A DNA stretch of 62,028 bases from Candidatus Gottesmanbacteria bacterium (GCA_043801155.1 JAZDMI010000020.1:1-62028), one strand, 5' to 3'; shown: positions 4,747-49,328, numbered from the stretch's first letter. Notes: generated from the letters alone by a model not told the origin. Translations and numbers: made by a program.

Positions 4747-6261
4747 TTAGTTATTTAATAATTTGAATATTTTGTACGCTTGGTTATCAAATACTTTTTC
4801 CTTAGGTAACACCTTATCAAGATAGGAATAAATATCTGATGTCCATGGATTAGACATACCGTATGTTTGGTAAATAATATAATCGGCATTGTCATTTTCT
4901 GGATCACGGCCGATTGGTCTACCGGTTAAGTATGATATTTCAGGAGCTCTGTAAATTCCAATACCGGATATTTTTTTTACATAAGGTATAGATATATTGA
5001 CAAAATTTGCTGTTTCTTTTTGTTTTTTTAACAACAAATTTTCTTTAAAATATGGAGTTTTACTTTCTCCGACGAAGAGAAGATTTTGTTCTACAAGCTT
5101 GGTTAAATTAATAGCAGGATTATTTAATCTCTTTCTCTCGATAAAAGAATCAACTATAAAAATACTAATAAATAATAATAAAAGTACTATTTTATTCTTG
5201 TTTAATTTTTTTAAAAATACAGTTAAAAAATAGGGGATAATAATTATAAATGACAGAATCGAAGGAAAAAAATATCTATACCAATTAGTTGAACATATAA
5301 AGAGAAAGTATAAAGAGAAAAATAATTGAAAAAGGGCAACCATTTTAAAGAATATGATTTCTTTCTTACTCTTAGTAAATAGCACATATATACCAATAAA
5401 AAGCATGATTGTTATAAATAAAATTGGATTTAGGAAAAAAACATAATTAATCATTCTTAGACGATCATAGAACGCAAGAGGATTGGGATGTGATAATGAT
5501 CCATTAAATATTATGGTACTTGACCATATTTCTATGAATTTTGGCAAATTAAATTGGATAGAGATCAAAATATATAGATTCCATAATATTAAAATCATCA
5601 GCCCACCTGCTATAATTATTGACAGATTTTGAATTTGTTTATTATAATCTTTATTTGTAATAACCTGCATAAACCAAACTATTATAATTGGGATAATACT
5701 GATAAAAAAAATATTTTTTGTTAACACAGACAAGGCAATAAAAATACCTGTTAAAAAATATTTCTTTTTAGTAAAAAAGTAATAACTAAATATAAGCAGG
5801 GTAAGAGCAGGAATTTCTCCTAATACATGAGTCGAGAAAAAAAAGAATAATGGAGTAAATAATACAAGGACAAGAAATATAATTTTTTGATTATCCAAAA
5901 TGTATATATGTTTAAGCAATAACCAAAGTAACACTATTACATATATATTTATAACTAATCTTGGTAGGAATGGCAGAATAGTATTTACGAATAAAGATGC
6001 TGGGATTATAACAGTAGGGCCGGTCGTTATATTATAATCAAACAATCTTTCAAATGAGGCATATGTCAAATGGTAACGAAGATTTGTACTAACTTGAAGG
6101 AATACGCCTTCATCAAAATCATATGAAGCATTTATGGTTTGGGATATTAATACGATCAAAATATAGAAGAATAATAGGCGTATTAAAAATCGGATATTAT
6201 TATTAATAGATTGGTAATTTATTACTAAGTTATGTTTAAAAAAGTGACGATTTTCCATCAT
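4747..6261 (-). CDS. polytopic membrane protein, GT-C (GT39/83-like) glycosyltransferase candidate
   Basis: 504 aa and multi-TM. A YDFDEGVF motif directly after TM1 resembles the acidic DE motif in the first loop of ArnT/PMT-type enzymes. Confidence 0.45.
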   Translation of the reverse strand: MMENRHFFKHNLVINYQSINNNIRFLIRLLFFYILIVLISQTINASYDFDEGVFLQVSTNLRYHLTYASFERLFDYNITTGPTVIIPASLFVNTILPFLPRLVINIYVIVLLWLLLKHIYILDNQKIIFLVLVLFTPLFFFFSTHVLGEIPALTLLIFSYYFFTKKKYFLTGIFIALSVLTKNIFFISIIPIIIVWFMQVITNKDYNKQIQNLSIIIAGGLMILILWNLYILISIQFNLPKFIEIWSSTIIFNGSLSHPNPLAFYDRLRMINYVFFLNPILFITIMLFIGIYVLFTKSKKEIIFFKMVALFQLFFSLYFLFICSTNWYRYFFPSILSFIIIIPYFLTVFLKKLNKNKIVLLLLFISIFIVDSFIERKRLNNPAINLTKLVEQNLLFVGESKTPYFKENLLLKKQKETANFVNISIPYVKKISGIGIYRAPEISYLTGRPIGRDPENDNADYIIYQTYGMSNPWTSDIYSYLDKVLPKEKVFDNQAYKIFKLLNN

Positions 6262-22041: not shown

Positions 22042-22067
22042 TATATGATATATTAATATATCATATA
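22042..22067. promoter_or_regulatory. perfect 26-bp palindrome (operator candidate) over the promoter and start codon of the TrpR-like gene
   Basis: TATATGATATATTAATATATCATATA equals its own reverse complement. It overlaps a putative -10 TAATAT (22054-22059), and its last base (22067) is the A of the ATG at 22067-22069. TTGACA lies at 22030-22035. Confidence 0.55.
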
Positions 22068-22456
22068 TGACCCACGTATCGAAGAAAAAATTGTCCGAAC
22101 AGACTTTCGAAGAAATAAAGAATACCTTTCTTCTTGTCCTTACCGAAATTAATAATAAACAGGCAATGAGTGAATTTTTAGATGTCTTTTTATCTACGAC
22201 CGAAAAAGAGATGCTGGCCAAAAGATTAGCGATAATTTATCTATTAGACAATGGTATTCCTGAAACAAATATTGCTCAATTACTTCATGTAACCCAATCT
22301 ACAGTCTCGTTAATGAAATTAAAATATGAAAACAATCAGCCGGGTTTTCAATGGGCAATTAGCCAAATAAAAAAACAAAAGTTATTACAGAATATCGAGA
22401 TATTAGCATTGCGCTTCGCCAAATACGCCGTCCGTGCTTCCGGTGGAAGAATATGA
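22067..22456 (+). CDS. TrpR-related YerC/YecD-family DNA-binding protein
   Basis: LSTTEKEMLAKRLAIIYLL..GIPETNIAQLLHVTQSTVS looks like a helix-turn-helix of the Trp repressor family. Confidence 0.6.
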   Translation: MTHVSKKKLSEQTFEEIKNTFLLVLTEINNKQAMSEFLDVFLSTTEKEMLAKRLAIIYLLDNGIPETNIAQLLHVTQSTVSLMKLKYENNQPGFQWAISQIKKQKLLQNIEILALRFAKYAVRASGGRI

Positions 22457-34499: not shown

Positions 34500-34620
34500 A
34501 GGGAAATATTACATCATTCTTGTTCTTTTGTCACCTTGATACTTCGATTATTTCAGTATCAAGCCTGATTATTTCGCAGGCTTGACATTATCTGTTAAAC
34601 TGTTCAGTATTAATTTATAC

Positions 34621-34703
34621 CGCCCCTCAAGATGTCGAGCTTACAGCGAGACCGAATTGAGGAAAGGTAAAAGGAGCATTCGCCGAAGGCGAAGCGGACT
34701 TAT
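34621..34703 (+). repeat. structured intergenic element, copy A
   Basis: CCTCAA-GAT-GTCGAGCT-TAC-AGCGAGAC-CGAA-TTGAGG, then an A-rich linker, a TTCGCC-GAA-GGCGAA hairpin, and GGACTTAT. Confidence 0.75.
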
Positions 34704-35150: not shown

Positions 35151-35161
35151 ATCTTTTATTT

Positions 35162-35282
35162 CGCGCCTCAGAATGTCAACTTTACAAGTTGACCTGAATG
35201 AGGCAAGAAAAAAGGAGCACCTGCAGGAGCGAACTTATTCGAACATCGTGAGAAAAAGGAGCACCTGCAGGAGCGGACTTAT
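35162..35282 (+). repeat. structured intergenic element, copy B (tail module duplicated)
   Basis: CCTCA-GAAT-GTCAACTT-TAC-AAGTTGAC-CTGAA-TGAGG, then two copies of AAAAAGGAGCACCTGCAGGAGCG(A/G)ACTTAT with a 44-nt period. The end overlaps the efp stop codon. Confidence 0.8.
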
Positions 35283-41217: not shown

Positions 41218-41652
41218 ATGAATCTGGGGAAGGAAACGATTTTTGCTGCTATTGTTGGATTCGCCATCGGGATAGTAGCTGCTTGGGCCATACTGGGCTT
41301 ACCTCAATTTTTACCTAAAAAAGAAACGACCATTACGACAACCAATGAATTCAAGCAAACTCAACCATCGCCAACCCCACAAATTTCACTACTGACACTA
41401 ACCGCTCCGGAAAATGATATTATTGTTCAAACACCACGAGTTGATATTTCTGGTAAAACTTCCATCGGAAGTACTGTGGTTATTAATGGACCGTTAGCCG
41501 ATGAGGTAATCGAGGCTACCGGAGATGGTAGCTTTGTTGTAAGTCTTGATCTCGAGGAAGGTTCAAACGACATTCAGGTTACTGCATATGGGGTAAATGG
41601 ATCTGAAAAAACGGAAACAAGAATGGTCAACTATACTAAAGAAGAATTTTAA
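41218..41652 (+). CDS. membrane-anchored protein with an Ig-like domain
   Basis: N-terminal TM helix, and VDISGKTSIGSTVVINGP...DGSFVVSLDL is typical of bacterial Ig-like folds. Confidence 0.4.
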   Translation: MNLGKETIFAAIVGFAIGIVAAWAILGLPQFLPKKETTITTTNEFKQTQPSPTPQISLLTLTAPENDIIVQTPRVDISGKTSIGSTVVINGPLADEVIEATGDGSFVVSLDLEEGSNDIQVTAYGVNGSEKTETRMVNYTKEEF

Positions 41653-41659
41653 ATTGGCG

Positions 41660-42487
41660 ATGCAAATGAAAAAAATAATTTTTTTTATCATTACTTTTAT
41701 TTTATATACAACAATTTATTCGTCAACTGTCATGGCGGTTCCGGCTACTGATTCCGCCCAACAAGCAGAGAATCGCCAAGAACAGATAGAACAACTTAAA
41801 GACCGGGTAGCCACTAGAGTTGCCGAAATGAGACAACTAATGCGGCGAGCTTGGTCAGGTAAAATTAAAAGTATCTCCGAAAGTAATATTATCTTTTATA
41901 CAAAACTGGGAGATAAAACTGTAATTACCGATGACCAAACTATTTTTATCGAAGTCGGAGCTGGTGGTCGAAAGAAAATTAATTTTAATAACTTAAAAGT
42001 AGATCAACAAATTACGGTCTTTGGACTTTATGATGAAGAAAAAGGCCAATTAACAGCCAAGGTTATTATTGTTCGGGTACTACCGATGAATATCAACGGA
42101 AAAGTTCTTGAAGTAAGTTCAACAAATGGTACGCTAACAGTCCAGACTCCTAATCAAAGTTCTTATATTGTTGATATTGAAACAGCAACTAAGATTCGGG
42201 TTTGGGATAAAGAAAAAGGGATCCAACAATCCGGGCTATCAAAGATAACCGTTGGTGATCGGGTTCATATAAACGGTACAGTTCCATCAAAAGTAACAGA
42301 AACTAATCAACTTACAGCTATTCGCATTCTGGTTTTGCCAGGTAAAGCATTAGGAATTGTTGGTTCACCAAAGCCACTCGTTAATACTTCGCCGTCTCCA
42401 TCAGCATCAGTCAGTCCGTCAACAAAGGCTTCACCAGTATCCTCTCCGAGCGGATCCCCTGTCTCCTCTCCAAAATCTACCCCGTAA
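41660..42487 (+). CDS. secreted protein with a Ser/Pro-rich tail
   Basis: Signal-like MQMKKIIFFIITFILYTTIYSSTVMA, and a C-terminal SPSPSASVSPSTKASPVSSPSGSP. Confidence 0.45.
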   Translation: MQMKKIIFFIITFILYTTIYSSTVMAVPATDSAQQAENRQEQIEQLKDRVATRVAEMRQLMRRAWSGKIKSISESNIIFYTKLGDKTVITDDQTIFIEVGAGGRKKINFNNLKVDQQITVFGLYDEEKGQLTAKVIIVRVLPMNINGKVLEVSSTNGTLTVQTPNQSSYIVDIETATKIRVWDKEKGIQQSGLSKITVGDRVHINGTVPSKVTETNQLTAIRILVLPGKALGIVGSPKPLVNTSPSPSASVSPSTKASPVSSPSGSPVSSPKSTP

Positions 42488-42520
42488 TAAATTTTGATTT
42501 GACAAGGAATATTTATTTGT

Positions 42521-42593
42521 GATATAACATTCTTCGAATGTTTTTCCTTGCCTCAATTCACCTTTGATGTAATCAAAGGATCTTGAGGGGCAG
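42521..42593 (-). repeat. structured intergenic element, copy D (opposite orientation)
   Basis: CCTCAA (42551-42556)/TTGAGG (42583-42588), inner stem CCTTTGAT-GTA-ATCAAAGG, and a CATTC-TTC-GAATG hairpin followed by TTTTT. Confidence 0.75.
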
Positions 42594-42608
42594 AATAAAA
42601 ATTATCAT

Positions 42609-42761
42609 GTTAAGTTTAGTAAATAGAATCCATCATTACCAGCCAGCTTAAAGTTGGTTGGTTTTGACGTGGATTAAACTTAACAGTAAATACTAAAAAC
42701 TAAATACAAATAAGTAGGACCAGCCAAACTTTAGGCAAAAAGCTTAAGAGGCTGGTTTTTT
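42609..42761 (+). promoter_or_regulatory. structured leader with mutually exclusive hairpins ending in a terminator, upstream of the radical SAM gene
   Basis: A 76-nt three-tier hairpin spans 42609-42684. The terminator ACCAGCC...GGCTGGT plus TTTTTT spans 42719-42761. Segment 42650-42661 is complementary to 42720-42732. Confidence 0.45.
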
Positions 42762-42794
42762 AGTGGGAAAAATTAATGAAAGGAGGTGAAAAAT

Positions 42795-43916
42795 ATGAGT
42801 ATTAACGTAGAACAACGTTATGAAACAGCAAGAGACGTAAGTCGAAATAATAAGGTTCCAGCAATAATTCTGGAAACTAGCGGTGAATGCCCGCTGGCTT
42901 GTAAAAGATGTTACATGATAACTGGAGATCGCACAGCTTCCTTATCTGGCAAACCCCAAATGATTGACAGTCGAAAAGCCGTAGAAATTTTTGACCTGAT
43001 AAAGGCACAGAATAGCGGCCAGGAAGCGCAATCAGTTGATTTGGTTGGCGGTGAACCGATGTTACCAAGAGTTTGGCAGGAAGTTAAAAAGACTATTGAA
43101 ATAGCATCTGATCGCGGAATTGTACCATGGCTTTTTACTAACGGAATGTTTATGACGCCGGAAGATGCCAAATGGCTTCTAGATAAAAAAACATTTATTA
43201 CTATGAAGCTTAATATCGGTAACCCTAATGATCCCAAACAAATGGAATTACAGGCCAAAATGGTCGGCAGAAATATTAACGCAGCTAAACAGTTGGCGCG
43301 CGGATTATATATTGCTCTTGACGCCGGATTAAAGAATCCACAACTTAGCGTTGAGAACTTAATTCGGGCTGAAAATGCCCCCTTGGTTGGTGAATTCTAC
43401 GAGCTGGGGTTGAAATTAGGATTTAAACCGGATGTTGAAATTACGGGCAACGGACAAAAAGATAATTGGGGATTCTTTGCTGAAGCTCCAAGTATTGAAC
43501 AAATCCGCTCGATAATGGGACAAATAAAAAGTGTAAGAGAAAAACAAGGACTAGAACCAATCACTTTTTTAATGCCTCACATTACCGGCAGTTGTTCATT
43601 CTTTGATACGGCTTTATATTTCCGGCCGAACGGAGATATCCAACCGTGTAGTGGCAACCCAACGGTTCTGGCCAATGTTAATCAAGAAAATGCCATTGGG
43701 AATGCAATAGAAAGCCCAGTTATCCAAGTACGAAGGAATTTGACTCAAAGTCAACTTTCCGGACCATGTGGTAATTGTGGAACCTGGAGTCTGTGTCGAG
43801 GCGGATGCCGGGCAACTGTTGAATCATTTGGTAATCCTTATGGTTCTTATCCTTTATGCGGAATTCAGAAAGAATTCAATAACGCTAAAGATATAGCTTT
43901 GTCTAATAAGAAATAA
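42795..43916 (+). CDS. radical SAM enzyme with a C-terminal SPASM-like Cys cluster
   Basis: CPLACKRCY (CX3CX2C), and a C-terminal CGNCGTWSLCRGGCRA. The SD AGGAGG lies 8 nt before the ATG at 42795. Confidence 0.8.
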   Translation: MSINVEQRYETARDVSRNNKVPAIILETSGECPLACKRCYMITGDRTASLSGKPQMIDSRKAVEIFDLIKAQNSGQEAQSVDLVGGEPMLPRVWQEVKKTIEIASDRGIVPWLFTNGMFMTPEDAKWLLDKKTFITMKLNIGNPNDPKQMELQAKMVGRNINAAKQLARGLYIALDAGLKNPQLSVENLIRAENAPLVGEFYELGLKLGFKPDVEITGNGQKDNWGFFAEAPSIEQIRSIMGQIKSVREKQGLEPITFLMPHITGSCSFFDTALYFRPNGDIQPCSGNPTVLANVNQENAIGNAIESPVIQVRRNLTQSQLSGPCGNCGTWSLCRGGCRATVESFGNPYGSYPLCGIQKEFNNAKDIALSNKK

Positions 43917-43922
43917 GTTAGA

Positions 43923-43949
43923 GCTCCGGGGAAAGTACACCCCCGGGGC
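43923..43949 (+). terminator. GC-rich hairpin after the radical SAM gene
   Basis: GCTCCGGGG-AAAGTACAC-CCCCGGGGC is a 9-bp stem with one G-T pair. Only a weak T tract follows. Confidence 0.4.
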
Positions 43950-43963
43950 TTAACTTTAAAAAT

Positions 43964-44488
43964 ATGAACAAGAAAATATTAAACATAGCGATTAAAAAAT
44001 TCAAGAAACTTAAACCTGAATACAAGGGTTTTATTAATGTGGGAGTCGATAATTGGCGAGGTTTCAGATTTATTTTCGATACACAAGATGTGAGGAATTG
44101 TAAAAACAATTGTTCTGTATGTCCGCTGTATCAAGCATTACGGGTAGAAAAAAAGGGTTTATTTTCTGCCGGTCTATATCCGGCCAGTAAAGAAGATAAA
44201 AAACTGTTTGGTAAGCAAAATTATTTAAATTGTAAAACTTTAAAACAATATCAGAACTGCTATGTTAGTTGGTTAGTCAAAAAAGCAAAAACGAGAAAAA
44301 AAATTGAAGATGAGATAAAGTTAATAAAGAATTTTAGAATTATTTATTCAAATAAGAAAACAAATATAATCAAACAAGAGGTGAGATTTAGACAGGAAAT
44401 AATAAATAAAGTCCTGCAAAATGTTTCCATCAAAAGAAGCAAGCTACTTAAAAATTTATGGTATACTAAAAAAGGAGGAATTTTATGA
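43964..44488 (+). CDS. basic Lys-rich protein with a CX3CX2C motif, unknown function
   Basis: 174 aa containing NCKNNCSVCPLY. Its stop overlaps the start of the HisRS-like gene (ATGA). Confidence 0.4.
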   Translation: MNKKILNIAIKKFKKLKPEYKGFINVGVDNWRGFRFIFDTQDVRNCKNNCSVCPLYQALRVEKKGLFSAGLYPASKEDKKLFGKQNYLNCKTLKQYQNCYVSWLVKKAKTRKKIEDEIKLIKNFRIIYSNKKTNIIKQEVRFRQEIINKVLQNVSIKRSKLLKNLWYTKKGGIL

Positions 44489-45396
44489 AAAGAGGGCCAA
44501 CAACACCAAAAGGCTTTCGTGATATCGATCCGGAGTTAGCCAAAAAAAGACGAACTGTTATAAACAAGATTGCTGAAGTATTAGAGACTTTCGGCTTTGT
44601 TCCTATTGAGACCCCTACTCTTGAATTTGAGGAAACACTTATGGGTAAATATGGCGACGAGGAAAAATTGATTTATCAATTTACTGATCGCGGTGGAAGA
44701 AAGTTAGCTTTAAGATATGATTTAACCGTTCCCCTAGCACGATTTGTAGCCAATAACCTGGGTCTTCTTAAACCATCTTTCTCACGTTTTCAAGTCGGTC
44801 AGGTTTTCCGCGGAGAAAATCCGCAAAAAGGCCGATTTAGAGAGTTTACCCAATTTGACTTTGATACTGTTGGTTCTACCAGTTTAGAAGAAGATGCCAA
44901 AATAATATCCGCCTCAATCACATCAGTCAGAAATTTAGGGCTTAACGAAGCAAAAATGTTAATTAATGACCGACTTGTTTTTAAGGATCTTAAACCAGAA
45001 TATATAAGAGCGATCGATAAATTTTATAAAATTGGCAAGGAGGGAGTAATAACCGAAATGATTGCCAATGGCGCTGATAGTACTTGGGCTAAAAATTTTA
45101 TGTCTTCATTTGATGAATTACAGCTTACTCCAAATTTAAAAATTCTTTTTGATTATCTAAATAATATTGGTTTGGCTAAAGGAAAAGATTATGACTTTGA
45201 CCCTACCTTGGCTAGAGGTTTGGATTATTATACCTCCACCATTTTTGAACTGAAACCAACGGGGAAACCAGACGAGTTATCGATTGGCGGCGGCGGAAGA
45301 TATGATAATTTAATCGGTGTGTTTAGCGGCCGGCAAATTCCCGCCGTCGGTTTTTCTTTTGGTCTAGATAGGTTAATTGAATTTCTAAACAACTAA
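44485..45396 (+). CDS. hisS: histidyl-tRNA synthetase-like catalytic core (no anticodon-binding domain)
   Basis: Motif 2 FRGENPQKGRFREFTQ, ARGLDYYT, GGGGRYDNL and GFSFGLDRL are present. The protein ends 6 aa after the last motif, at 303 aa. Confidence 0.75.
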   Translation: MKRGPTTPKGFRDIDPELAKKRRTVINKIAEVLETFGFVPIETPTLEFEETLMGKYGDEEKLIYQFTDRGGRKLALRYDLTVPLARFVANNLGLLKPSFSRFQVGQVFRGENPQKGRFREFTQFDFDTVGSTSLEEDAKIISASITSVRNLGLNEAKMLINDRLVFKDLKPEYIRAIDKFYKIGKEGVITEMIANGADSTWAKNFMSSFDELQLTPNLKILFDYLNNIGLAKGKDYDFDPTLARGLDYYTSTIFELKPTGKPDELSIGGGGRYDNLIGVFSGRQIPAVGFSFGLDRLIEFLNN

Positions 45397-45407
45397 GAGA
45401 ACAATTT

Positions 45408-46310
45408 ATGTCTGCCCGGAAAAAAGCTATTCTGGCTTTAATAATTGCCAATATCATTTGGGGTGGTGCTTCGCCAATTTTCAAATGGGGGCTAACTAAT
45501 ATTGCTCCATTTACTCTTGCTTTTATTCGTTTTGCTGGGGCTGCTATTATCATTTTACCGTTTACTTATAAAAAAATATTTAATATCAACAAACAATATA
45601 TCAATAAAATTATATTATTTGGATTTTTAGGTGTCACTCTTAATATCTCCTTTTTCTTTGCCGGTCTTAAACTATCGCCGTCAATTAATGCGTCGATTAT
45701 TGCGGCAACAGAACCATTGATTTTACTTCTGATCGGTGCCTTTCTTCTTAAAGAAAATGTTGAACGTCATGAAATTGTTGGCACACTAATTTCCTTATTT
45801 GGAGTTTTTACTATTATTTTATTGCCTATTTTATCTAATGGTTTAAGCGGTGAACTAATGGCTTTGGGAAATTTTTTCTTTATTATCGCGGCGCTTGGTG
45901 CTGTTGGACAAGCTTTTTTTGGTAAACAACTTTTTAAATATAATGATACGTTACCGATAACATTCTGGTCGTTTTTAATCGGAGCAGTATCTTTTTTACC
46001 GGTATTTATTATTGAATTAATTGATAATCCTTTGTGGTATCAACATTTAGATAAACCAGGATTAACGGCAATTTTTTATGGAATATTTTTCTCATCTGCC
46101 TTAGCATATTTTCTTTATGATTGGGGCTTATCCAAAATTGAAGCCTCGGAAACCGGTATATTTACCTATATCATGCCGATTACGGCTCTGTTGATCGCTG
46201 TTCCCTTTTTTGGCGAGAAAATTACTTGGCAATTTATATTAGGCACATTATTTATTGTAACCGGAATTATTATTGCCCAGATACATCTTCACAAAAAGCC
46301 ATCATTCTGA
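45408..46310 (+). CDS. EamA/DMT-family transporter
   Basis: Ten TM helices in two EamA-like halves. Confidence 0.8.
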   Translation: MSARKKAILALIIANIIWGGASPIFKWGLTNIAPFTLAFIRFAGAAIIILPFTYKKIFNINKQYINKIILFGFLGVTLNISFFFAGLKLSPSINASIIAATEPLILLLIGAFLLKENVERHEIVGTLISLFGVFTIILLPILSNGLSGELMALGNFFFIIAALGAVGQAFFGKQLFKYNDTLPITFWSFLIGAVSFLPVFIIELIDNPLWYQHLDKPGLTAIFYGIFFSSALAYFLYDWGLSKIEASETGIFTYIMPITALLIAVPFFGEKITWQFILGTLFIVTGIIIAQIHLHKKPSF

Positions 46311-46322
46311 TATAATCAGTAC

Positions 46323-46631
46323 ATGAAATCAGACATTCATCCCCAATGGTATCCGAACGCCAAGGTCACCTGTGCCTGTGGTAATACTTTTACGATTGGT
46401 TCAACTAAACCAGAAATCAGAGTTCAGATTTGTAGCAAGTGCCACCCTTTTTTTACTGGTCAAATAAAATATGTTGATACGGCCGGTCAGGTCGAGAAAT
46501 TCCAGAAAAAACAGGCAATTGGCCAGGCAAAAGCATCAGATTTAGCAGCTAAAAAGGCTAAAAAACAACAGAAACTTCAGGAAGAAAAAGAAGGACCAAA
46601 GTCATTAAGAGAAATGCTACTTGGTAACTAA
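46323..46631 (+). CDS. rpmE: ribosomal protein L31 (Zn-ribbon type) with a Lys-rich C-terminal extension
   Basis: [10 protein letters not shown]...CACGN...[10 protein letters not shown]. Confidence 0.9.
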
Positions 46632-46648
46632 CTACTTAAGACTTAAAT

Positions 46649-47353
46649 ATGAATCCTAATATAATTATCATTGAAATTCGTGGTGCTGCCGGCGGTGATG
46701 AAGCCAAGATCTGGGCTGATGATCTTGTTCGGATGTATACAAGATATGCCCAAGCGCAAGGCTGGAAAGTTGAATTAATAGATCAGGGAACAATCAAAAT
46801 TTCCGGGACAGATGCTTTCAGTAAATTAAAAATGGAGGGTGGTGTACACCGCGTACAGCGTATACCGGAAACTGAACGCCGGGGTAGAATCCACACATCA
46901 ACCGCTACTGTGGCTGTCTTACCGGAAATTCCGGAAACTCAAGTGTATATTGATCCGGCTGATATTGAGATGCAGGTTTTTCGAAGTGCAGGCCATGGCG
47001 GCCAAAATGTGCAAAAGGTTTCTTCTGCAGTCAGGATTATTCATAAACCAACTGGTGTTATCACAACTTGCCAAACCGAAAGAGACCAATGGCAAAATCG
47101 ACAAACCGCTATGAGTATGCTGCGGGCAAAACTATGGGAGTTAGAAGAAGAAAGAAAAAGATTACGACTATCAGATCTTCGTCAGGTCATTGGCCGAGGT
47201 ATGCGAGCCGAAAAAATTAGGACATATAATTATCCGCAGGATAGAGTTACTGATCACCGAATCAATAAAAGTTTTAGATTGGCTGACGTAGTTGAAGGAA
47301 GACTTGATAAACTTTTATCCTCATTACTCAATCAAATAAATAAACAAATTTAA
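46649..47353 (+). CDS. prfA: class I peptide chain release factor, RF1-like, lacking N-terminal domain 1
   Basis: IEIRGAAGGDEA, RIPETERRGRIHTS (PxT-type tripeptide) and the GGQ motif SAGHGGQNVQK. Only 234 aa. Confidence 0.8.
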   Translation: MNPNIIIIEIRGAAGGDEAKIWADDLVRMYTRYAQAQGWKVELIDQGTIKISGTDAFSKLKMEGGVHRVQRIPETERRGRIHTSTATVAVLPEIPETQVYIDPADIEMQVFRSAGHGGQNVQKVSSAVRIIHKPTGVITTCQTERDQWQNRQTAMSMLRAKLWELEEERKRLRLSDLRQVIGRGMRAEKIRTYNYPQDRVTDHRINKSFRLADVVEGRLDKLLSSLLNQINKQI

Positions 47354-49168: not shown

Positions 49169-49218
49169 AACAGAGAATATTTTTTCAAATAAACCTGAGA
49201 TAATACTTAGAATTATTC

Positions 49219-49328
49219 CGCGCCTCAGAACGTCAATTTCACAAATTGACCTGCCTGCCCGCCGGCGGCATTGCCGCAGGCAAATGCAGGCGGGAATGAG
49301 GCAAGGAAAAAGGAAAACTTGGACTTAT
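49219..49328 (+). repeat. structured intergenic element, copy C, carrying a nested GC-rich palindrome
   Basis: CCTCA-GAAC-GTCAATTT-CAC-AAATTGAC-CTG, then a 41-nt insert at 49254-49294, then AATGAGG and a tail ending GGACTTAT. The end overlaps the ctpA stop codon. Confidence 0.8.

Follow-up and report, generated by a model that had tools for sequence, protein, structure and literature searches.

A long structured leader, at positions 42,488–42,794 of a 62,028-nt stretch of DNA from Candidatus Gottesmanbacteria bacterium (GCA_043801155.1 JAZDMI010000020.1:1-62028), precedes a gene for a radical S-adenosylmethionine (rSAM)/SPASM protein. We refer to the whole stretch as the window; the genome it belongs to is that of a Microgenomates-like member of the Candidate Phyla Radiation (CPR), 1.06 Mb in size with a completeness of 92%. 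The leader carries two adjacent His codons at the foot of the first of three helices, the middle one of which is mutually exclusive with both others, and this arrangement is conserved across CPR relatives with coordinated change of the pairing arms. We consider it likely that the leader attenuates transcription in the manner of trp and his leaders, through a ribosome that reads histidine codons, and our model predicts that read-through into the rSAM gene responds to His-tRNA.

Three alternative helices in the leader

The elements of the leader, all on the plus strand, are as follows.

42499–42528, plus strand: promoter-like site, with −35 TTGACA (42499–42504), an 18-nt spacer and −10 TATAAC (42523–42528)
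42541–42598, plus strand: H0, copy of a palindromic intergenic repeat resembling repetitive extragenic palindromic (REP) elements, between promoter and mini-ORF (fold −17.1 kcal/mol)
42607–42651, plus strand: leader mini-ORF (open reading frame) of 14 codons, read from the sequence as MLSLVNRIHHYQPA and a stop
42631–42636, plus strand: CAT CAT, two His codons in tandem at the 5′ foot of region 1, proposed to do the sensing
42608–42685, plus strand: H1, three-tier anti-antiterminator hairpin (fold −33.5 kcal/mol, z −7.8)
42647–42735, plus strand: antiterminator (2:3), in which 42647–42665 pairs with 42716–42735 and uses up the 5′ arm of the terminator
42716–42761, plus strand: H2, intrinsic terminator (3:4), with outer stem 42719–42725/42750–42756, inner stem 42730–42736/42742–42748, and T6

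The whole leader folds at −81.2 kcal/mol, compared with −51.3 ± 4.2 kcal/mol in dinucleotide shuffles (z −7.1). Within H1, P1 pairs 42609–42618 with 42675–42684 as a perfect 10-bp helix (11 bp including 42608/42685), P2, a homologue of the conserved CAUCA/UGAUG base helix, pairs 42628–42635 with 42665–42674, and P3 is an 11-bp stem with two G-U pairs, formed by region 1 (42638–42648) and region 2 (42652–42662). A preliminary description of this DNA, whose coordinates are all borne out by the sequence, had located this three-tier hairpin correctly and had assigned only 6 bp to P3. The mini-ORF ends in the 3-nt loop of P3, which consists of its UAA stop codon. Just behind hairpin 1:2 lies a U run (42662–42665), a feature also frequent in relatives, which may act as a pause site.

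The terminator (−19.0 kcal/mol, z −4.1) closes with a T run (42756–42761) that ends 33 nt upstream of the rSAM ATG (42795), as first described. Its 5′ arm is also the partner of region 2 in the antiterminator, and helix 2:3 excludes both 3:4 and 1:2. This alternative pairing, likewise recognized before, has a duplex energy of −16.9 kcal/mol in the window (z −2.5 against shuffles, rank 0 of 34 partners), while the cognate 1:2 duplex reaches −25.9 kcal/mol versus a mean of −8.1 kcal/mol with region 2 of other loci. Both H1 and H2 are single-copy in the 1.06-Mb genome.

Transcription would start near 42535, giving a leader of about 260 nt. The TTGACA-18-TATAAC motif reported earlier is present in the sequence and has a TG extension before the −10, so that the extended −10 reads TGATATAAC (42520–42528). 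TTGACA-18-TGATATAAC is a match to the consensus only: the consensus scan looks for a T at the end of the −10, and the site went unlisted because this base is C. Boxes of the type TGnTATAAT, like the extended −10 of the leader, are also present elsewhere in the genome.

The same order of elements recurs across CPR relatives

The comparison covered the 200 nt upstream of each rSAM homologue, amounting to 65 distinct upstream regions, and 30 non-redundant leaders were folded; the DNA upstream of the rSAM proteins P0002–P0013 (60–72% identical) lay outside it. In 45 of the 65 regions, an ORF whose end lies 40–300 nt before the rSAM start has two adjacent His codons (HH) among its last 25 codons, against a background of 5.6% among the other ORFs of at least 80 aa at the same loci. 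The architecture that had been described from the window alone recurs in widely separated CPR lineages, so that the comparison with relatives' leaders proposed at the outset supports it, and variants of the mini-ORF are found at several loci. The recurrent order is two to three in-frame His codons, hairpin 1:2, a spacer, a G+C-rich terminator 3:4 with a T run, a ribosome-binding site (RBS), and the rSAM ATG. In all 30 leaders, hairpin 1:2 has His codons at its foot (two in 20, three in 10), and single-sequence folds give a downstream terminator in all 30. In one third of them, the region 2:3 alternative is already the minimum-energy fold.

At the level of primary sequence, the leader DNA resembles the relatives' loci only in a 46-nt stretch of L042 around T run and RBS, and no conservation of H1 or H2 was detected among the relatives' loci searched. 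At most loci, the HH-bearing ORF encodes a ~107-aa protein of the Trp-repressor family (PF01371/TIGR02531 YerC/YecD), with a tail such as ..GGYKLILNRLNHHHNFSPSGRGLC followed by the stop; YerC is the histidine repressor HisR in Firmicutes (PMC9413887). Elsewhere (L091, L057, L052, L071, L094, L036, and L046), a mini-ORF of 15–31 codons, either stand-alone or coupled, carries the His codons. The leader stop codon falls in the loop or past region 2, depending on the locus. Genes resembling hisC flank the rSAM operon in L042 and G007. In the clade of L064, L021, and L072, CAT CGA CAC (His-Arg-His) replaces the tandem His codons before hairpin 1:2. Palindromes of the TGTATTAATACA type, which resemble TrpR/HisR-type operators, lie near promoters upstream of hisR or the leader in L029, L063, and L036.

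The peptide encoded after HH varies wherever the RNA arms differ, and reads YQPA, QITSP, RINSPRSR, or SPSQAFEKRPV up to the stop. This variation bears on a different explanation, namely that the His-containing short peptide is a substrate of the rSAM/SPASM enzyme, a ribosomally synthesized and post-translationally modified peptide (RiPP), and that the hairpin is a leaky terminator between precursor and maturase. SPASM enzymes are typically peptide maturases, and a leaky terminator is common between a precursor gene and its maturase; here a small ORF lies directly upstream of the rSAM gene, the typical subfamily carries an H-x-N/S-like motif (HHHNSS), and the rSAM protein has weak NCBIfam similarity to cyclophane-, thioether-, and sactipeptide-forming maturases. 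However, these NCBIfam matches are all far below their cut-offs, only HH is conserved whereas the following residues and the stop position change with the RNA arms, and the recurrent partners are HisR, hisC-like genes, and HisRS rather than proteases, exporters, or RRE proteins. The locus-specific 2:3 pairing described below would also have no role in a leaky terminator. We regard a RiPP precursor as very improbable.

A long structured leader with mutually exclusive helices could in principle also be a riboswitch, in which binding of a metabolite or, T-box-like, of a tRNA would drive terminator and antiterminator without a ribosome. At the gathering threshold, Rfam models match only tRNA in the whole window, and a permissive search of 42400–42900 returned only rows at chance level; the only T-box row (RF00230) reached 14.9 bits where the cut-off is 93, and it covered the RBS and coding start. 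Neither a T-box nor any other known leader was found upstream of rSAM at the loci of 14 relatives. Moreover, the in-frame pair of His codons is the only invariant sequence, and no conserved unpaired pocket is visible. The metabolite riboswitch mentioned as an alternative at the outset therefore finds no support, and we give a ligand- or tRNA-binding leader hardly any credence.

Helix partners are matched locus by locus

Coordinated change of the arms was assessed without alignment, by comparing the duplex energy of each arm with its own partner to that with the partners of other loci (5000 permutations). Cognate and non-cognate energies are −16.2 versus −10.7 kcal/mol for 1:2, −13.9 versus −11.0 kcal/mol for 2:3, and −16.6 versus −11.1 kcal/mol for 3:4. 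For none of the three helices was the cognate value reached in any of the 5000 permutations (0/5000), and the same result was obtained for all three on a set thinned to 15 dissimilar leaders. The window is the clearest example of this pattern. Its arms 1–4 read CCAGCC, GGTTGG, CCAGCC, and GGCTGG, as opposed to CTCTTC, GGGAAAGGG, CCCCTTCTC, and GAGAAGGGG in the family consensus; all four have diverged, yet region 2 fits its own region 3 best.

A covariance model of hairpin 1:2 gave 36 plus-strand matches, every one just upstream of an rSAM gene, with 86% of cells paired compared with 40–50% in slid controls. Its minus-strand matches fall on terminators, which would follow from regions 3 and 4 resembling the complements of regions 2 and 1, respectively. 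The model does not match the diverged H1 of the window, whose membership in the family thus rests on position, His codons, peptide similarity, and alignment-free pairing. When whole leaders were aligned with MAFFT, variable spacers disrupted the alignment, so that RNAalifold returned the terminator and nothing else.

Ribosome position decides the predicted fold

For 30 leaders, we folded the RNA with a ribosome masking it to 15 nt past the P-site. With the ribosome on the His codons, the terminator disappears from the minimum-energy fold in 24 of the 30, while with the ribosome on the stop codon it stays intact in 28. In the window, the number of terminator pairs goes from 14 without a ribosome to 0 with the ribosome at HH and back to 14 with the ribosome at the stop. 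A footprint reaching 42646 makes the antiterminator the minimum-energy structure (−24.2 kcal/mol). In co-transcriptional snapshots, the antiterminator forms once 42725–42745 has been made. If no ribosome is present, H1 and the terminator form by default.

From these data we derive the following model. Transcription would proceed from near 42535 through H0 into the 14-codon mini-ORF, whose His codons precede region 1. Without a ribosome, 1:2 would form within H1, the terminator would follow, and transcription would stop 33 nt before the rSAM start codon. When charged tRNA-His is plentiful, a ribosome reaching the UAA in the loop of 1:2 would cover region 2, again allowing the terminator to form. 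When it is scarce, the ribosome would stall on the His codons and cover region 1 only; region 2, thereby freed, would pair with region 3 before region 4 is made, so that no terminator arises. RNA polymerase would then read on through the genes for the rSAM/SPASM protein, its partner of 174 aa, and the truncated HisRS, and probably through those behind them. The earlier suggestion of a terminator/antiterminator logic set by a ribosome on the His codons is supported by the conserved architecture, the locus-specific pairing, and the footprint folds. The connection with histidine gains weight from the gene neighbourhood, namely the HisR genes that bear the His codons in most relatives, the hisC-like genes beside the operon in L042 and G007, and the sole HisRS of the genome within the operon itself.

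The mini-ORF as a probable remnant of hisR

As initially reported, the 14-codon ORF with its two adjacent His codons and no Shine–Dalgarno (SD) sequence is present in the window. The nearest SD-like motif, GAGG (42585–42590; GAGGGG), lies 16 nt before the mini-ORF ATG and within the H0 repeat. The putatively translated mini-ORF resembles HisR-gene tails, which follow the pattern ..L(I/V)LNR(L/I)HHH.. in relatives. At the equivalent position, the mini-ORF peptide ..LVNRIHHY.. shares 4 identical and 3 similar residues of 9 with the HisR-tail consensus ..LILNRLHHH... The mini-ORF is probably a remnant of the hisR 3′ end: in most relatives the His codons end the HisR gene, and the window would have lost hisR while retaining a short tail-like ORF. 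No TrpR-family ORF is found between 41597 and 42795, and hisR is gone from the locus. Two other TrpR-family genes occur in the genome, at 22067–22456 and on contig 22 (G000:C22:5830-6063), encoding 129 and 153 aa; both lack an HH tail and an rSAM neighbour and share just 21% identity with the HisR-like gene of L058. No HisR-type operator palindrome was seen at 42488–42540, operators not having been searched systematically. The NAY-rich codons (Tyr, Asn, and Asp) after HH had also suggested queuosine-dependent decoding, an idea we discarded since the helix sequence accounts for AAC.

Evidence against an attenuator and the possibility of a relic

Several observations weigh against the proposed attenuator. 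Upstream, the −10 hexamer ends in C, without the usual final T. The mini-ORF has no canonical SD at 5–10 nt, the G of its ATG and codons 2–4 are buried within P1, and it offers the ribosome just two His codons. Across the family, CAU makes up 93% of the His codons, which pair with a UGAUG downstream, so part of their conservation could be at the level of RNA. Covariation within the typical subfamily, whose members are closely similar, is modest, with only one of five measures clearly above shuffles. H1 and H2 have arm sequences in common, as a local duplication would also yield. The outcome of the footprint folds depends on the footprint assumed: with a larger footprint, which leaves RNA free only from 42651 on, the full-length equilibrium favours the terminator over the antiterminator by ~5 kcal/mol. 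Read-through would therefore have to rely on kinetics, as in classical attenuators. Finally, the two nearest rSAM relatives whose upstream DNA was available, L042 (65% identity) and L046, both of Microgenomates type, lack the 1:2/2:3 arrangement. At both loci (5869–5960 and 2276–2400, respectively), HH(H), two codons, and a stop are followed directly by a single long terminator; the His codons end a hisC-like gene in L042 and lie in a 31-codon ORF in L046. Such a layout may amount to a variant with just two regions, the terminator arm being directly obstructed by the stalled ribosome.

Some of these points, in particular the missing SD and the start codon lying partly inside P1, would also fit a relic, in which a hisR-linked attenuator has decayed, the mini-ORF is untranslated, and H1 and H2 form only a constitutive tandem that terminates or insulates the upstream DUF5666 gene; expression of the rSAM operon would then come from leak-through or an unrecognised promoter. 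The absence of hisR from the locus, with the two remaining TrpR-family genes of a different type, the insertion of H0, and the default fold of H1 plus terminator without a ribosome all agree with such a history. However, the four arms all depart from the consensus sequence and yet preserve 1:2, 2:3, and 3:4 complementarity, which is unexpected for decay, and the mini-ORF is intact with its stop exactly in the loop. Stand-alone mini-ORFs without an SD occur in independent lineages (L091, L094, L052, L071, and L036), the DUF5666 orthologue in a family mate has no terminator hairpin, and the 33 nt between T run and ATG leave little room for another promoter. We therefore hold a decayed attenuator to be unlikely.

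H0 is a REP-like repeat, H1 is not repeated

The third hairpin of the leader, H0, had been overlooked in the preliminary description. Iterative nhmmer searches find ~38 copies of this 58-nt repeat in the 1.06-Mb genome. The copies lie at gene boundaries, their inner stem covaries, some contain nested insertions, and their flanks are conserved as TTTTTCCTTRCCTCA .. TGAGGNGCGRAATAA around a GTAA/GTGA-like loop. Further copies in the window are found at 34615–34672, 35156–35213, and 49213–49311 (minus strand). By these features, H0 appears to be a REP/REPIN-like mobile hairpin inserted into the leader. Several real genes of the genome start 3–4 nt after an H0-type copy with no other SD, as seen for rpoC-like, rpsK-like, and serS-like genes.

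In a genome this rich in palindromic repeats, H1 itself might be a palindromic or mobile DNA element like H0, its fit to the terminator stemming from local duplication rather than selection. The perfect 10-bp inverted repeat of P1, the words CCAGCCA and AGCTTAA common to the H1 apex and H2, and an 8-nt direct repeat AGTAAATA at 42618–42625 and 42685–42692 would suit such an origin. In contrast to H0, however, H1 is unique in the genome, and HH codons, hairpin, and terminator stand in the order and spacing of ~45 homologous leaders. Moreover, the two G-U pairs of P3 correspond to A-C mismatches on the other strand and hence point to a plus-strand RNA. That H1 is a DNA element is in our view highly unlikely.

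The leader travels with the rSAM module

The genes downstream of the leader comprise the following.

42779–43916, plus strand: RBS AAAGGAGGTGA (42779–42789) and rSAM/SPASM gene (ATG 42795), the first structural gene
43964–44488, plus strand: gene for a 174-aa protein, by synteny at ~80 loci a constant partner of rSAM across CPR
44485–45396, plus strand: HisRS catalytic core of 303 aa without the anticodon-binding domain, its start overlapping the stop of the 174-aa gene

The rSAM/SPASM family is CPR-wide, and its pairing with the 174-aa gene is seen at ~100 loci in many CPR lineages. The 174-aa protein has no Pfam or NCBIfam match, and the protein atlas gave no informative match. The HisRS-like gene noted earlier downstream of the leader is the sole HisRS match in this 92% complete genome. 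A short HisRS is likewise the only one in G001 (95% complete; C9:173506-174405) and G007 (100% complete; C17:14178-15068), while among the other 18 genomes of the class that were sampled, 16 have a full-length HisRS of 400–453 aa and two (G005 and G015) show partial matches only. The short HisRS is probably the housekeeping enzyme in these lineages. Behind hisS follow an EamA transporter gene and genes for L31 and for a release factor 1 (RF1) without its N-terminal domain. This RF1 (46649–47353; 234 aa) aligns to positions 113–352 of the prfA model and is kept in G001 (L132 5223-5900; 225 aa, 75% identical), so it is not an assembly artefact. L31 (46323–46631) has 102 aa compared with ~68 in the model, and its ~35-residue C-terminal extension is kept in G001 and L042.

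The family mate G001 provides a direct view of the locus without the leader. There (L132, G001:C9:170500-176500), 82 nt separate the DUF5666 gene from the short hisS, EamA, L31, and truncated RF1 genes behind it; this spacer has a TGGTATACT box and no hairpin, and leader and rSAM pair are absent. Leader, rSAM gene, and 174-aa gene are thus present in the window (41597–47353) and missing from the same site in G001, with identical flanks, and on this comparison they behave as a single insertion/deletion unit. Since G001 has the short hisS without a leader, the attenuator would travel with the rSAM module and not with hisS. The preliminary description had cautioned that the terminator might belong to the upstream gene. 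This possibility is weakened by G001, whose DUF5666 gene has no terminator hairpin; the terminator of the window is accordingly not simply the end of that gene.

Relation to known attenuators

Leader-peptide attenuation is textbook biology, and the closest counterpart of the leader is the E. coli trp system (trpL with TrpR). There, too, the leader peptide has 14 residues, its two regulatory codons lie side by side in or just before region 1, a stop falls between regions 1 and 2, and helices 1:2, 2:3, and 3:4 work with an intrinsic terminator; in the rSAM relatives a TrpR-family repressor likewise acts on the same operon. Unlike trp, the window leader has His instead of Trp codons and no SD, and its target genes are not biosynthetic for the sensed amino acid; in most relatives, it is the repressor gene whose tail supplies the sensing codons, in place of a separate leader ORF.

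In the E. coli pheST attenuator and the T-box systems of Firmicutes, an aminoacyl-tRNA synthetase gene is switched by the charging of its own tRNA. The proposed switch similarly places a synthetase gene, hisS, under a reading of its own tRNA's charging. In contrast to these systems, hisS is third in the operon, after the rSAM and 174-aa genes, there is no T-box match, and the leaderless hisS of G001 assigns the switch to the rSAM module.

The enterobacterial hisL leader and the His-leaders of Firmicutes likewise place tandem His codons just before attenuator, antiterminator, and terminator hairpins (Ashniev et al, 2022, PMC9413887), and they sense charged tRNA-His by ribosome stalling (PMC9413887). 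The window and its relatives have two to three His codons; hisL has seven, and the leaders from Firmicutes have three to five. The His attenuators of Firmicutes occur in lineages without HisR (PMC9413887), whereas the CPR relatives combine HisR and attenuator in one transcript. With respect to HisR (YerC/YecD) regulons, the His-codon-bearing gene of most relatives is of the same PF01371/TIGR02531 YerC type, while the window locus has no hisR gene. A further difference to the his leaders is the target, here the rSAM/SPASM pair and hisS; His-leader attenuators and HisR regulons have been described for Proteobacteria and Firmicutes, and that study mentions neither rSAM genes nor hisS (PMC9413887). 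We found no paper on leader-peptide attenuation or HisR in CPR/Patescibacteria, nor on this rSAM family.

Implications

CPR organisms are thought to be unable to make amino acids. Tentatively, and with some doubt, we suggest that the rSAM/SPASM protein and its 174-aa partner may be part of a histidine-starvation response across many CPR lineages, carrying out an undescribed histidine-related task. Candidates under this reading would be a non-canonical histidine route, a salvage step, or a tRNA-His-related modification.

The proposed switch would label an otherwise unannotatable CPR gene pair as wanted when charged tRNA-His is low, and the same label would cover what appears to be the only HisRS of the window genome, an enzyme without an anticodon-binding domain. 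Since the sensing codons of most relatives are the last codons of the HisR gene, protein- and ribosome-based histidine sensing would be united in a single transcript. Sensing by the tail of the repressor gene is an unusual design, of which the window would represent a stripped-down form after the loss of hisR. An unknown rSAM enzyme thereby becomes the subject of a testable, histidine-linked hypothesis.

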